DNA of 64,000 nt from Clostridia bacterium (GTDB lineage Bacteria > Bacillota > Clostridia > Oscillospirales > SIG627): NCBI GenBank assembly GCA_017439965.1, contig JAFSID010000102.1:26472-90471 (forward strand). The letters are read 5' to 3'. This document shows, piece by piece, positions 4,243 to 8,468 of the stretch (the stretch's first letter is position 1; each line of letters opens with the position of its first letter). A model generated the notes under the pieces. It worked only from the letters and a program-made list of their open reading frames with translations. It was not told the origin of the DNA and did no database searches. Both the position numbers and the translations under genes were made by a program.

Positions 4243-5178
4243 ATGTTAGTTAACATGAACGAGGTACTCTACCCTGCTAAAAAGAATAAGTACGGCGTAG
4301 GTCTTTTCAATGCAGTAAGCATGGAGCTTGCAAGAGGTATCATTCAGGCGGCTGAGCAGACAGGCTCTCCCGTTATTATGGGTACCGCAGAGGTGCTTCT
4401 TCCCTACTGTCCTCTTGAGGAGGTTTCCTACTATCTTATTCCTATGGCTAAGAAGGCAAGAGTTCCGATCGTTGCTCACCTTGACCACGGTCTTAAGAAG
4501 GAGACCTGCATCAAGGCTCTTGAGCTTGGCTTTACGTCCATTATGTACGACTGCTCGACCGATTCCTACGAGGACAACGTAAGAAAGGTTCGTGAGATGG
4601 CAGACATCGCACACTCCTACGGAGCTACCATTGAGGGTGAGCTCGGACACGTAGGCGGTGTTGAGGGTGGCACGGGTGCAGATCAGGAAGAGGATCCCAC
4701 CAAGTACTACACCGATCCCGAGCAGGCATACGATTTCGTCACAAGAACTAAGGTTGACGCGCTTGCAATTGCAGTAGGCACCGCACACGGCGCTTACAAG
4801 CTTCCCCCCAAGCTCGACTTCAACAGAATTGAGACTATCGCAAACACCGTTGACGTGCCCCTCGTACTTCACGGCGGCTCAGGTCTTACCGACAACGATT
4901 TCAGAACTGCAATAGAAAAGGGTATTTCTAAGGTAAATATCTTTACCGATATCAATATCGCGGCAGTTGAGGCTGAATTCCGTGCGTTCACAGATATGAA
5001 CAAGGGTATCACCGACCTCATCCCTGCGGCAGTTGAAGCTATCCGCAAGGCAGTTGTAGAAAAGCTCGAGCTCTTCAACAGCTGTGGCAGAGGCTTACAG
5101 CAGACTCCCGGCGAGATTGACATCAACGACCTCGTTGCAAAGGTTACCGCTGAGGTCCTCAAGCATATGGGCAAATAA
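4243..5178 (+). CDS. fba: class II fructose-/ketose-bisphosphate aldolase with a C-terminal extension of about 27 aa
   Basis: The ORF track starts at 4102, but a GGAGG SD (4231-4235 region) precedes the in-frame ATG at 4243 (MLVNMNEVLYPAKKNKYGVGLFN..). Class II motifs are present: AHLDHG, HGGSG. The tail LQQTPGEIDINDLVAKVTAEVLKHMGK lies beyond the usual ..LF.S.G. end. Confidence 0.88.
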   Translation: MLVNMNEVLYPAKKNKYGVGLFNAVSMELARGIIQAAEQTGSPVIMGTAEVLLPYCPLEEVSYYLIPMAKKARVPIVAHLDHGLKKETCIKALELGFTSIMYDCSTDSYEDNVRKVREMADIAHSYGATIEGELGHVGGVEGGTGADQEEDPTKYYTDPEQAYDFVTRTKVDALAIAVGTAHGAYKLPPKLDFNRIETIANTVDVPLVLHGGSGLTDNDFRTAIEKGISKVNIFTDINIAAVEAEFRAFTDMNKGITDLIPAAVEAIRKAVVEKLELFNSCGRGLQQTPGEIDINDLVAKVTAEVLKHMGK

Positions 5179-5183
5179 TCAAA
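5134..5183. repeat. direct repeat copy 1 (50 bp, att-like): last 14 codons, stop and 5 nt of fba
   Basis: GTTGCAAAGGTTACCGCTGAGGTCCTCAAGCATATGGGCAAATAATCAAA is identical at 5819-5868. Identity ends abruptly on both sides. Confidence 0.95.
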
Positions 5184-5192
5184 TAATTATTT

Positions 5193-5227
5193 AAGGAAGG
5201 CTTAACCGCCTTCCTTATTTTTTATTT
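5193..5227 (+). terminator. rho-independent terminator after fba (inside the insert)
   Basis: AAGGAAGGC (5193-5201) pairs with GCCTTCCTT (5208-5216) around a 6-nt loop, followed by ATTTTTTATTT. Confidence 0.8.
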
Positions 5228-5304
5228 CAAAATAGTCCTTGACAAACATATATTCAGGAGCAATTCCCCAAGCCTTCCCGATTTGTGTTACCAAACATAT
5301 AATA

Positions 5305-5340
5305 GCACAAATCTGTGCGATTGTCAGCACAAATTTGTGT
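5305..5340. promoter_or_regulatory. two operator-like palindromes GCACAAAT(C/T)TGTG, 22 bp apart
   Basis: GCACAAATCTGTGC at 5305-5318. GCACAAATTTGTGT at 5327-5340, whose core CACAAATTTGTG is a perfect 12-bp palindrome. A half-site ATTTGTGT lies at 5281-5288. Confidence 0.5.
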
Positions 5341-5365
5341 TATTGATTATAATTATAACGATATT

Positions 5366-5543
5366 CGAAAGTCGAAATTCAAGAATTTCGACAGCAAAGC
5401 TTTGTTTTGCTAACAGTTTTCTTTGAGAAAACTGTCGATTTTCGTTCAAATGAATGTAGTCCAAAAAGCAATATGCTTTTTGGGGAGGCTGATATATCAG
5501 CTTCGAAAAGGCTTTTTGCCTTTTCGACATCCTACATTCATTA
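5366..5543 (+). other. hairpin cluster folding as two tandem four-way junctions (candidate structured RNA or ssDNA element)
   Basis: Module 1 (5366-5444): closing pair CGAAA/TTTCG and hairpins 5371-5392, 5393-5411, 5413-5435. Module 2 (5449-5543): an 11-bp closing stem AATGAATGTAG/CTACATTCATT and hairpins 5461-5483, 5485-5504, 5504-5526. All were paired by hand. Confidence 0.35.
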
Positions 5544-5558
5544 TTCTGAGGTGAAGTT

Positions 5559-5780
5559 ATGAAAAAATATCAAAACAGACTTAGAGACTTACGTCAGGAT
5601 AAGGATTTAACTCAAGAAGAAATTGCAAAAGTGTTCTTCCTGCAAACCACACAATACAGACGTTACGAAAACGGAGAAACCGATTTGCCGCTCGAATGGG
5701 CGAAAAAATTTGCCGTATACTATAACGTGTCAATTGATTACATAGCAGGACTTACCGATACTCCTAAAAGCTACAAATAG
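5559..5780 (+). CDS. XRE-family helix-turn-helix transcriptional regulator
   Basis: 73 aa. LRQDKDLTQEEIAKVFFLQTTQYRRYENGETDLPLEWAKKFAVYYNVSIDYIAG is a typical HTH_3 (Cro/C1) pattern. GAGGTG SD at 5548-5553. Confidence 0.85.
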   Translation: MKKYQNRLRDLRQDKDLTQEEIAKVFFLQTTQYRRYENGETDLPLEWAKKFAVYYNVSIDYIAGLTDTPKSYK

Positions 5781-5818
5781 ATTTAAAGCATATATTCAAG
5801 CAGAAGACGAAGCACGTT

Positions 5819-5868
5819 GTTGCAAAGGTTACCGCTGAGGTCCTCAAGCATATGGGCAAATAATCAAA
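5819..5868. repeat. direct repeat copy 2 (50 bp), a non-coding duplicate of the fba 3' end
   Basis: Identical to 5134-5183. The upstream in-frame sequence hits a stop codon 18 codons upstream (TAA at 5765-5767), so this copy is not part of a gene. Confidence 0.95.
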
Positions 5869-5927: not shown

Positions 5928-7067
5928 TCAAAAATCAGATTTCTTTAGGTTATGCATACGACAGAGCATTTGCCCGTTATCAAGCGTAGTATGTCCGCCT
6001 TTGCTCCACGGGATAATATGGTCTGCTTGCATATTCTGATAATTCCAAGGCTCACAGAAGCCCTCTGCGGCACACATCGGGCATATGCCCTTTTGCCTTT
6101 CAAAAAGTATCCGCTTTTCATTATCCGTAAACGTGCGTATCGACAAAAGACGCTCACGGCTTCTACCGCTCAGCATATACTCATAAACTCCTTTTTGATT
6201 GGTTACGTCATCATCCTGAAGCAATAAGCTTATGCTTTTTTCCAACTCAGTCGGATCGTAGACCTCACCATTGAACTCATTGAACAAAATCCCCCAATTA
6301 AGTCCCTTCATAAGCTTCCCTCTATACTTGGGGAAGGTAAGCTCTACCCAATCAATCACAGCCTTATAATACTGCTTTAAGGGAGTAGCGTGAGTATCGT
6401 GCTGATGCTCTGCCATATATTCTTCAATGCTTTTTCCCTCCTTGCACGAAATCCAATGTAGAACAGTCTGTAAGTAATCTTGTCGAATGGGCGAGCCCGC
6501 CATATAACGTTCACCTATTTTATATGCAATACACTGATTTTTACTGAAATATTTTTTTGCATCACTCAGCCATTCTCCTGAGTAAACAGCATTTCTGAGC
6601 TCCTGTTCAGTAAGCTTTTCTCCTGCTATATTTATTATTTTAAACCAGTCAAGCTTTTCTGTATCAGTACCCTTGCAAATATATATCATCAATTTATAGT
6701 CAAGTACTTTCCGAGTTATTTCGTTTGACGTATGTGCATAATACCTCGTAGTCGGAACGTTCGGATCAGCCGCCACCGAAAATCCGTTGTCAAGCCAATC
6801 ACAAATACTTATCGTCCGCTGTTGACCGTCAAGCATTTCATACGTTCCATCCTCATTTTCAGACCAATACATAACGTTAAGCGGATAATTGTGTAAAATA
6901 GAATTTATAACTGCAATCTTCTTTTTATCATCATACACAAATTCTCTTTGATATGCGGGACGGACGTTAAGTCTTCCTCCGTAAGCAACAACTCTGCCAC
7001 TATCTTCATCGTCGTCAAAGCCGTCAAACAAATCTCTTACAGTGATTTCTTTAAGTTCAATTTCCAT
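5928..7067 (-). CDS. DUF262 (ParB/GmrS-like) plus C-terminal HNH nuclease
   Basis: 379 aa. N-terminal part: RPAYQREFVY and MLDGQQRTISI (the DGQQR signature of DUF262). C-terminal part: CPMC...ADHIIPWSKGGHTTLDNGQMLCRMHN (HNH finger). The start overlaps the methyltransferase 3' end by 11 nt, with an AGGAG SD inside it. Confidence 0.85.
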   Translation of the reverse strand: MEIELKEITVRDLFDGFDDDEDSGRVVAYGGRLNVRPAYQREFVYDDKKKIAVINSILHNYPLNVMYWSENEDGTYEMLDGQQRTISICDWLDNGFSVAADPNVPTTRYYAHTSNEITRKVLDYKLMIYICKGTDTEKLDWFKIINIAGEKLTEQELRNAVYSGEWLSDAKKYFSKNQCIAYKIGERYMAGSPIRQDYLQTVLHWISCKEGKSIEEYMAEHQHDTHATPLKQYYKAVIDWVELTFPKYRGKLMKGLNWGILFNEFNGEVYDPTELEKSISLLLQDDDVTNQKGVYEYMLSGRSRERLLSIRTFTDNEKRILFERQKGICPMCAAEGFCEPWNYQNMQADHIIPWSKGGHTTLDNGQMLCRMHNLKKSDF

Positions 7068-8130
7068 TGTTTTTTCTCCTAATAATTATTCTTGCGTATT
7101 TAGGTTTACCATTTATTTCCGTTAAATATTTTCCTTTAGTTTGAGGTGTGGGTCCATCTATCATACTGTATCGTCCTATACCATCCAAAATTTCAAACTG
7201 CTGAGGATTATATTTATCAAGGAACGTAATAGGAACTCCCATTGCGCCATAATAATCCTCCGGAATATTTGATGTTGAATCGACATTTATAGCATCATAG
7301 TTATCGTACTTGGGATATTCTTCAGGATTATATTTCTTCCAAAGCTCCAAATCCGTATGACGTTCTACATAATCCATATTCGTAAACCATCGCACTCCTT
7401 TCACCCTTATATATTTATTACCTTTTTCATCAACTCTGCACCCCGATGCCTCCATAGGATAATCAGTCGGCACTCTAAACTCCCTATCTCCGCTATGTAT
7501 AGAGTAGCCAAGCCACAGTTTATTTTCCTTGATTAAGGAAAAAATATCTCTATATGAAGTAGCATTAACATTACCAATTATCAAAAATTGTTTTTTATGC
7601 TCTATTAACTGAGAAACATATTCACGAAAAAGAGAAAATGGAGGATTGGTCACGACGATTTCCGCTTCATTTAATATCTCAACACATTCATTAGAACGAA
7701 AATCCCCATCTCCTTTTAACAAAGAAAGTGTATTTTTCTTATTTCGCAGTAAATATTCAACATCAACAAGGTCAATGGCACCATCACCGTTTATATCGTC
7801 AACATCCGTAATATCAATTCTGTAAGCACTTTTTTCATTTTTGGTTTCTATACACTCCTCGAAAAGACTCATTTGATCAAACTCAGTACCCGCAACGGAT
7901 GACCCTTTATAGCAAGAGGCAATCAGTCTTTTTAGTCCTAAGTATTTAAAATTCATAGCGAAGTATTTAAAAAAATTACTTTCATAAGGATCATCACAAT
8001 TACAAAACACCGTTTTATCTTTAAAATGATGTTTGTAGTGCTTTAACTCCGTCTCAATATCAACAAGTTGCGTGTAAAACTCATCCTTCTTATTTTTATT
8101 GGCCTTACGCAAATCACTATTACCCGACAT
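7057..8130 (-). CDS. N6-adenine DNA methyltransferase, EcoRI-methylase-like family
   Basis: 357 aa. DEFYTQ near the N-terminus, FCNCDDP, and the catalytic VVTNPPFS (NPPF) motif. It contains the EF-hand-like insert DINGDGAIDLVD. Confidence 0.8.
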   Translation of the reverse strand: MSGNSDLRKANKNKKDEFYTQLVDIETELKHYKHHFKDKTVFCNCDDPYESNFFKYFAMNFKYLGLKRLIASCYKGSSVAGTEFDQMSLFEECIETKNEKSAYRIDITDVDDINGDGAIDLVDVEYLLRNKKNTLSLLKGDGDFRSNECVEILNEAEIVVTNPPFSLFREYVSQLIEHKKQFLIIGNVNATSYRDIFSLIKENKLWLGYSIHSGDREFRVPTDYPMEASGCRVDEKGNKYIRVKGVRWFTNMDYVERHTDLELWKKYNPEEYPKYDNYDAINVDSTSNIPEDYYGAMGVPITFLDKYNPQQFEILDGIGRYSMIDGPTPQTKGKYLTEINGKPKYARIIIRRKNNGN

Positions 8131-8165
8131 AATTTTTCTCCTATAATTTTAAAATTTTATATATT

Positions 8166-8200
8166 TATATAAGTATATACATATATAAGTATATATTCAA
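8166..8200 (-). promoter_or_regulatory. candidate M-R operon promoter (TTGAAT-17-TATACT) overlapped by two tandem TATATAAGTATATA boxes
   Basis: Boxes at 8166-8179 and 8182-8195 (16-bp period). On the minus strand, -35 at 8200-8195 and -10 at 8177-8172. Confidence 0.45.
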
Positions 8201-8209
8201 TTAAACGAA

Positions 8210-8238
8210 TTGTCAATAAGATATATATTTAATAAAAT
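8210..8238 (+). promoter_or_regulatory. candidate promoter of the small HTH gene (TTGTCA-17-TAAAAT)
   Basis: TTGTCA at 8210-8215, a 17-nt spacer, TAAAAT at 8233-8238. Confidence 0.45.
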
Positions 8239-8258
8239 ATATATTGGAGGAAAACATT

Positions 8259-8468
8259 ATGGTTAGATTAAAATTAAAAGAGTATCTTGACCTGATTGGG
8301 ACTACAAGATACGACCTTTCTGTAAAAAGCGGAATACAATATCAAATAATTGACAAATATTATAAAAACAAGGTGGTACGGTATGACAGCTATGTGCTTG
8401 ACAGAATTTGCTACACCTTGGATTGCGATATATCTGACATAATCGAATATAAAAAAGATAAAGCGTGA
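8259..8468 (+). CDS. small HTH protein (Cro/C1-type), candidate controller of the divergent M-R operon
   Basis: GGAGG at 8246-8250 sits 8 nt before the ATG at 8259 (MVRLKLKEYLDLIGTTRYDLSVKSGIQYQIIDKYY...). The track start at 8244 is a TTG inside the SD region. Confidence 0.75.
   Translation: MVRLKLKEYLDLIGTTRYDLSVKSGIQYQIIDKYYKNKVVRYDSYVLDRICYTLDCDISDIIEYKKDKA

Follow-up and report, generated by a model that had tools for sequence, protein, structure and literature searches.

A dispersed, gene-less hairpin repeat, probably of the IS200/IS605 (PATE-like) type, interrupts the leader of an XRE-family gene in an uncultured member of the Clostridia

Within the window (i.e., the whole 64,000-nt stretch of DNA analysed here), a class II fructose-bisphosphate aldolase gene with its terminator and a small XRE-family gene with its promoter lie side by side, with a 188-nt hairpin-forming block located between the promoter and the ribosome-binding site of the latter. 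The features of this locus are as follows.

5178: end of the class II fructose-bisphosphate aldolase gene, whose terminator lies at 5192-5222
5301..5353, + strand: native XRE promoter/operator region (inverted and direct repeats, promoter scan, colinearity with homologous loci L006-L011)
5305-5318: palindromic operator GCACAAATCTGTGC, 14 bp
5321-5326: TTGTCA
5327-5340: palindromic operator GCACAAATTTGTGT, 14 bp
5348-5353: TATAAT, the -10 hexamer
5353..5356, + strand: TTAT target motif, a TAM-like flank whose first base is also the final one of the XRE -10 hexamer
5357..5544, + strand: complete 188-nt copy of the element, subfamily A, starting AACGATATTCG and ending CTACATTCATTAT (full-length match to covariance model R1, 207 bits)
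5548-5553, + strand: Shine-Dalgarno sequence (SD) GAGGTG
5559-5780, + strand: XRE/HTH_3 gene of 73 aa with an ATG start codon at 5559 (Pfam HTH_3, E 5e-10)

The SD and the XRE gene (5548..5780) constitute the interrupted transcription unit and lie outside the element; an earlier note on this DNA had placed this SD just after the second group of hairpins, where it is indeed located. The two operator palindromes (GCACAAATNTGTGC), spaced 22 bp apart, overlap the promoter and are kept upstream of XRE homologues in six MAGs, in which the homologue is usually accompanied by a divergent second small HTH gene; judged from its sequence, the operator pair looks like a typical autoregulatory arrangement. 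Downstream of XRE, on the other strand, a low-GC island (5928-8468, about 35% GC within a genome of roughly 50% GC) encodes a GmrSD_N(DUF262)-HNH protein, an EcoRI-type adenine methyltransferase and a divergent HTH_26 regulator, with the start of the GmrSD_N-HNH gene overlapping the end of the methyltransferase gene. DUF262-HNH architectures are usually found in modification-dependent enzymes, and pairing with a methyltransferase is unusual.

Around the element, 50 bp of the aldolase 3' end are also perfectly repeated in direct orientation (5134-5183 = 5819-5868). The 685-bp block of 5184-5868 holds the terminator, the XRE promoter, the element, the XRE gene and the aldolase 3'-end copy, whereas on the related contig L031 the aldolase gene, its terminator and the restriction-modification genes follow one another directly; this arrangement argues that the 685-bp block is itself an insertion. 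By sequence, it resembles the remnant of an att-flanked integrative element or a Campbell-type insertion, but no integrase is present. Another contig (L002, positions 1400-1870) matches the window at 99.9% identity across the element, the XRE gene, the aldolase fragment and the restriction-modification genes; there, the element is a subfamily-consensus copy that is joined, exactly at its left end, to a GntR/FCD gene and the terminator of that gene. The simplest explanations for this junction are recombination or an assembly chimera between two near-identical copies. We also considered that the hairpins might mark one terminus of a larger transposon with XRE and the restriction-modification genes as its cargo; this is not supported, with the L002 junction more simply attributed to recombination or chimerism.

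Comparison with homologous XRE loci bears on how the hairpin block came to lie in the leader. Twelve loci encoding XRE relatives were fetched, the six closest of which (L006-L011, 79-86% identity) keep the operator palindromes, TTGTCA, TATAAT and the SD, with leaders of 20-45 nt; none of these six leaders contains a hairpin array, and model R1 detected no copy in any of the 12 loci. Once 5357-5544 is removed, the window reads ...GATTATAATTAT|TCTGAGGTGAAGTTATG and is colinear with the homologue promoters (e.g., ...GTGTATAATTATTTTAAGAGGTGAGTTATATG in L011). Because close homologues lack the block and align once the 188 nt are taken out, the block is, on this comparison, an insertion between the XRE -10 box and the SD. 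The SD has been pushed 188 nt away from the XRE promoter, and the element would belong to the XRE 5' UTR merely through its landing site. A dedicated XRE leader was accordingly rejected, given the short, element-free leaders of homologues that share the operators, -10 box and SD. These homologues, which share the operators and promoter, do not support the earlier note's suggestion of a structured leader or ncRNA of the inserted element; the block is a leader neither of the XRE gene nor of the 685-bp block.

The 188-nt unit is predicted to fold as two modules (5357-5544), each consisting of three hairpins inside a closing stem, as listed below.

5357..5446, + strand: left-end module (P1, H1, H2, H3; predicted folds and compensatory changes)
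5357-5360/5443-5446 (AACG/CGTT) plus 5363-5368/5435-5440 ((A)TTCGA/TCGA(TT)): P1, closing stem of module 1
5371-5380/5383-5392: H1, module 1
5394-5400/5404-5410: H2, module 1
5414-5421/5427-5434: H3, module 1
5449..5544, + strand: right-end module (P2, H4, H5, H6 and the terminal TTAT at 5541-5544; predicted folds)
5449-5459/5532-5542: P2, closing stem of module 2, 11 bp, perfect
5461-5470/5474-5483: H4, module 2
5485-5492/5497-5504: H5, module 2, with one G.T pair
5505-5512/5518-5525: H6, module 2

Folded as RNA, the + strand of 5360-5550 has a minimum free energy of -76.8 kcal/mol, compared to -38.1 +/- 4.4 kcal/mol in 200 dinucleotide shuffles (z -8.85; 0/200 shuffles as low), and the - strand reaches -72.2 kcal/mol (z -9.7); with DNA parameters, the two strands of the hairpin block give z values of -12.2 and -12.3. 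The nested stems that the earlier note had paired by hand within 5366-5543 are all present where it put them, and both strands fold far beyond chance in the shuffle comparison that it had proposed (z about -9 as RNA and -12 as DNA). Its two-module architecture stands, with the true unit (5357-5544, 188 nt) being slightly larger than the extent it gave; a closing stem of module 1 likewise exists, but the AACG/CGTT plus (A)TTCGA/TCGA(TT) pairing of P1 is better than the proposed CGAAA/TTTCG and is conserved in relatives. Searches with Rfam 15 on the window copy yielded best overlapping scores of 12-21 bits against gathering thresholds of 48-100, and permissive E-values on this and eight other copies yielded noise only; the IS605-orfB and HEARO models gave no match to the element, and ARAGORN finds neither tRNA nor tmRNA in the hairpin block. 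This agrees with the same note's view that the structure is no tRNA and belongs to no named RNA family. The region was also rightly taken as non-coding, the antisense open reading frame (5324-5530, - strand) being judged spurious.

A transcript from the native promoter would be predicted to carry a very stable 5' structure, in which the XRE SD itself would not be sequestered; in the promoter/terminator scan, H3 and its T-rich tract score as weakly terminator-like. Beyond the hairpins, both termini of the element pair with a single contiguous 25-nt internal segment (5435-5459), which approximates the reverse complement of the joined ends (5532-5544 + 5357-5368; ~21/25 nt), and all five further complete copies examined (L041, L023, L024, L025 and L027) show this complementarity as well. 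As a separate observation, 20 of 21 nt at the P1/P2 junction (5437-5457, + strand) are identical to a stretch of the methyltransferase gene (7684-7704, - strand, encoding DFRSNEC). We do not favour a regulatory link via this 21-mer, which is probably a chance match: it is sense to sense and also occurs in the L031 methyltransferase gene, where the element and XRE are absent.

The element is not confined to this locus. Two screens were carried out, (i) a scan of metagenomes anchored on the H1 palindrome, which returned 8 whole-length relatives (75-80% identical) on unrelated short contigs, and (ii) since gene callers sometimes translate the antisense strand of the element, a search of a protein collection with the corresponding pseudo-ORF, which returned 16 protein clusters (P0001-P0016). 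Contigs of five of these clusters provided 6 further sites (L034 to L039, which represent one site, L040, L041, L042, L043 and L044). Covariance model R1, derived from the first ten copies, gives every copy a score of 136-211 bits and finds no second copy in the whole 64-kb window. Altogether, copies occupy 17 distinct insertion sites, all intergenic, in gut and rumen Clostridia metagenomes and MAGs. Assemblies with copies include GCA_054266655.1 and GCA_017409565.1, and copies also lie on 239-kb and 98-kb contigs of JGI 3300031555. The copies are about 70-99% identical and form several subfamilies: members of subfamily A (window, L002, L041, L042 and L043) are 95-99% identical at five different sites, those of subfamily B are 93-99% identical, and the window copy is 69-80% identical to copies of other subfamilies. 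Such identity between sites (95-99% in A, 93-99% in B) suggests recent mobility.

Neighbouring genes are unrelated, and include those for an aminotransferase, IleRS/BPL, a pyruvate-formate-lyase (radical-SAM) activase, Fic, a microcompartment (BMC) operon and Apyc1, among others; by hand count, about 9 neighbours lie on the same strand as the element and 14 on the opposite strand, with no clear bias. With 17 different flanks, the copies cannot be orthologous positions of one locus. To judge from these contexts, the element is an independent mobile non-coding repeat and not a leader belonging to the XRE gene or the 685-bp block, and the family of miniature elements to which it belongs appears to be undescribed so far. 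The check named in the earlier note, whether such structures always sit next to small XRE genes, comes out negative: the element adjoins unrelated genes in both orientations across the 17 sites. BLAST searches of phages and plasmids with the 685-bp block and a subfamily B copy returned nothing relevant, and four scans of viral contigs (H1, H6, left end and right end) returned only one chance match, inside a coding region.

Several side observations accompany this survey. The antisense strand of the element (5324-5530, - strand, in the window) is often open and has been deposited as 'hypothetical proteins' of 44-108 aa (e.g., NCBI MAG locus IJP16_01015). Three unrelated environmental contigs (L018:4872-4893, L019:613-634 and L022:868-889) contain the 22-nt palindrome GTCGAAATTCATGAATTTCGAC by itself, with no other part of the element; there, it may be an independent operator or terminator.

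The predicted architecture is conserved throughout the family, with all complete copies folding as two modules of three hairpins plus a closing stem. Standard pairs occupy 94.2% of the pair cells in an alignment of 15 copies, and both sides have changed in 22/72 pairs compared to 11.2 +/- 1.7 in shuffles (0/500 reach 22) and 3-7 in slid controls; this alignment was fitted to the model, and the copies represent only about 4-5 lineages. Both-side changes affect 8/10 pairs of H4, 4/8 of H5 and 5/11 of P2, and compensatory changes are also found in P1 (A:T to G:C) and H3 (G:C/A:T and T:A/A:T). A helix table made by hand, without the model, contains 648 Watson-Crick pairs, 16 G.T pairs and 8 mismatches among 672 cells. 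Copy L027 is the extreme case, with module 2 made up of three hairpins of unrelated sequence and its architecture unchanged. H1 never varies among copies, an invariance that is partly due to ascertainment, since H1 served as the anchor of the DNA scan and its region is covered by the protein query. Homologues and covariation, named as a check in the earlier note, are thus both in evidence, with copies at 17 sites and compensatory changes between them. There are 16 G.T pairs against 5 A.C mismatches, and the predicted fold of the top strand is usually the slightly more stable one; together, this gives only a mild hint that the top strand may be the functional one.

The ends of the element are sharply defined. 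Copies are 186-194 bp in length, begin with AACGA(C/T)A(A/T)TCG and end, in all complete copies except L027 (TCACTAT), with TCATTAT. The four nucleotides preceding the left end (-4 to -1) at the 17 sites are TTAT (10), TAAT (3), CCAT (2), ATAT (1) and CTAT (1), such that A at -2 and T at -1 are invariant (17/17). Terminal inverted repeats (TIR) are absent, with the reverse complement of the right end being unlike the left end, and there is no target-site duplication (TSD). The five left flanks of subfamily A are TTAT (three times), TAAT and ATAT, against an unvarying TTAT at the 3' end of the element; the TCA before TTAT is a feature of every complete copy's right end versus 3/17 left flanks. 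That near-identical copies have different left flanks argues that the flank is a preferred target which is not duplicated. Insertion is of a single polarity at all 17 sites, 3' of a TTAT-like tetranucleotide.

At one site (L044), two different copies (89% identical) are arranged head to tail with the junction TCATTAT|AACGAC, and at another (L024), where the junction reads likewise, a copy is directly followed by a different element sharing its first 14 nt. Such head-to-tail junctions argue that the element's own 3' end serves as a target. The second element at L024 (positions 1617-1758), which follows the terminal TTAT, shares these first 14 nt (AACGACAATCGGAG) and the P1 partner GCCGATTG and differs in its interior; the contig stops 142 nt into this stretch, which may represent a related or parent element's left end. 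Inside the termini, H1 begins 14 nt from the left end and H6 stops 17-19 nt from the right end, with the feet of both being alike (CGAAA...TTTCGAC). The 4 nt before the hairpin feet are GAAA/AAAG at H1 and GCCG or GCTT at H6; the latter two have no evident relation to TTAT, and no covariation of guide and flank was seen.

Elements of the IS200/IS605 family lack TIR and TSD, insert 3' of a tetra- or pentanucleotide and have a hairpin at each end (PMC7290912). Their flanking motif (TAM) is nearly the same as the element-encoded end motif (TEM), and gene-less derivatives, termed PATEs, exist (PMC10055086); in a reference set of 39 IS605-family elements, left-end cleavage occurs most often at TTAT (PMC9956272). 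On the grounds that the window element has neither TIR nor TSD and combines a fixed polarity with a target-like 3' end, tandem insertion and subterminal hairpins, we consider it likely to be a non-autonomous MITE of IS200/IS605 (PATE-like) type, consisting of left and right ends only. It is thus a new family of a known kind of element, for which the type of transposase and the single-strand mechanism would follow by analogy. Of the DNA-level alternatives raised in the earlier note, a structure belonging to a mobile element came closest, while nothing points to the single-strand origin or att site it named. We rejected a TIR-type MITE derived from a DDE transposon, there being neither TIR nor target-site duplication.

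Under this assignment, the left- and right-end modules would fold on the top strand, allowing a Y1 HUH transposase supplied in trans to bind the subterminal hairpins H1 and H6. Cleavage would take place on the 3' side of two motifs, the flanking (T/A)(T/A)AT and the TTAT that ends the element itself; the top strand would then move as single-stranded DNA ('peel and paste') before being pasted 3' of another TTAT-like site without duplication of the target. Precise excision of the window copy would leave the donor joint ...TATAATTAT|TCTGAGG and close the excised circle at TCATTAT|AACGA; within such a single-stranded circle, the internal segment 5435-5459 and the joined ends would pair as one long helix. 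The window copy would thus have landed after the TTAT abutting the -10 box of an autoregulated XRE gene, where it would become a highly structured 5' UTR if the XRE promoter fires and may affect XRE expression.

Not all features of the element are accounted for by this scheme. IS200/IS605 ends normally need one hairpin each, with a guide of 4 nt on the 5' side of the hairpin foot that pairs with the cleavage site; IS608, for instance, uses AAAG for TTAC. Here, four extra hairpins and two closing stems are conserved, which TnpA binding alone does not explain, and we know of no described IS200/IS605 member with an internal segment complementary to its joined ends. An autonomous element with the same ends, a Y1 transposase or TnpB was found neither in the fetched loci nor in the viral, phage and plasmid searches, and the ten plausible ORFs of the window include no transposase (they encode a glycosidase, a peptidase, an ABC ATPase, an aminotransferase, a deaminase and others). 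GC skew is weakly negative on the + strand and, as a single weak data point, suggests that the element's top strand lies on the leading-strand template in the window, which is the less favoured orientation for the IS200/IS605 family.

Similarities to other small repeats can be weighed against these differences. Several classical families (RUP, BOX, Correia/NEMIS and ERIC) have TIR and target duplications, REPINs have a GTAG-tagged hairpin pair, and such structured repeats can end up in 5' UTRs and alter the expression of neighbours; bcr repeats of the Bacillus cereus group have a predicted stable folding and occur inside transcripts. The window element is, like RUP, BOX, Correia/NEMIS, ERIC and REP/REPIN, small, non-coding, hairpin-forming and intergenic; unlike classical TIR-MITEs, it has neither TIR nor TSD and keeps a fixed polarity next to TTAT. 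With bcr1-bcr3, it shares a Firmicute intergenic location, a size within 100-400 bp, mobile behaviour and a T-rich border motif ending in AT (PMC6542083), although its hosts are uncultured gut and rumen Clostridia and the comparison is one of descriptions rather than sequences. In bcr1, TTTAT is repeated at the borders (PMC6542083 and references therein), whereas the left flank of the window element varies and is not duplicated.

The closest likeness is to PATEs, gene-less IS200/IS605 derivatives of Haloquadratum, Halanaerobium and Geobacillus stearothermophilus (PMC3119063, PMC7290912, PMC10055086). As in PATEs, the element is short and non-coding, lacks TIR and TSD, lies 3' of a fixed tetranucleotide (TTAT) and has a 3' end resembling its target; it also has subterminal hairpins at both ends on one strand and multiple near-identical copies, and is presumably mobilised in trans. 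It differs from them in that (i) no cognate IS or TnpA was found for it, (ii) its ends are three-hairpin multiloops with a closing stem that sequesters the very terminus, a PATE end being a single hairpin, and (iii) a candidate guide tetranucleotide precedes H1, with nothing comparable before H6.

Of the other readings weighed, the first holds that the element is a PATE encoding a guide-RNA scaffold (omega-RNA/reRNA-like) used in trans by TnpB or IscB, with the RNA running out of the right end such that the window copy would have the XRE SD and start region as its guide. According to Meers et al. (PMC10055086), it is common for PATEs to encode omega-RNAs that work together with TnpB from other elements; the parts of the structure not needed by TnpA (H2-H5, P1 and P2) are kept by compensatory changes, and this reading can also draw on the 16 to 5 excess of G.T over A.C and on the usually somewhat better fold of the top strand. 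However, no Rfam model matches (including IS605-orfB and HEARO), no TnpB or IscB was found nearby, and the wholesale replacement of module 2 in L027 is hard to fit with one protein-binding scaffold; we thus regard this reading as rather unlikely. A related proposition, that the double-cloverleaf architecture exceeds what transposase-binding ends require and would be either a guide-RNA scaffold for TnpB/IscB or a built-in splint for the excised circle, is put forward only tentatively, as a minor possibility. If the splint version were true, the 25-nt segment would stabilise or regulate the excised single-stranded circle; if the scaffold version were true, the guide of the window copy would read into the XRE ribosome-binding site.

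Movement by another recombination system, e.g., an IS110-like or other site-specific recombinase acting on the TTAT-containing junction, or the 'site-specific recombination-like' mechanism put forward for the bcr repeats, would sit well with the lack of any parent element found, with termini that pair with an internal 25-nt segment in a manner not described for IS200/IS605 ends, and with the bcr repeats of another Firmicute group, which are linked to TTTAT through a mechanism that remains unresolved (PMC6542083). Against it, all end features tested (TIR, TSD, TTAT, end motif and hairpin feet) fit IS200/IS605, for which TTAT is a common left cleavage site in the IS605 family (PMC9956272), making this reading distinctly unlikely. 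Lastly, a dedicated cis-regulatory leader (riboswitch, thermosensor or attenuator) or ncRNA gene of the XRE/restriction-modification module could draw on the sense-strand position of the block, precisely where the XRE promoter ends and before the SD, on its extremely stable fold and on the terminator-like H3 with its T-rich tract, but is highly improbable given XRE homologues without the element, copies adjoining unrelated genes in both orientations and the lack of any Rfam match, any regulatory effect being a side effect of insertion.

Ultimately, reading the hairpin block as a mobile element, probably of IS200/IS605 type, accounts in a simple way for a striking structure, keeps it from being annotated as a riboswitch or ncRNA of the XRE/restriction-modification module, and reveals a MITE family of uncultured gut and rumen Clostridia that had not been catalogued before and for which exact ends, a target motif and a covariance model are now defined. 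Translations of the element have entered databases as spurious 'hypothetical proteins' (P0001-P0016), and the repeat may also give rise to contig breaks or chimeras (as at L002). Since its TTAT targets are situated within or beside -10 boxes, insertion of the element parts promoters from their genes. Should the extra hairpins prove to be an RNA scaffold or a circle splint, this family would provide a compact model for how gene-less IS200/IS605 derivatives persist.
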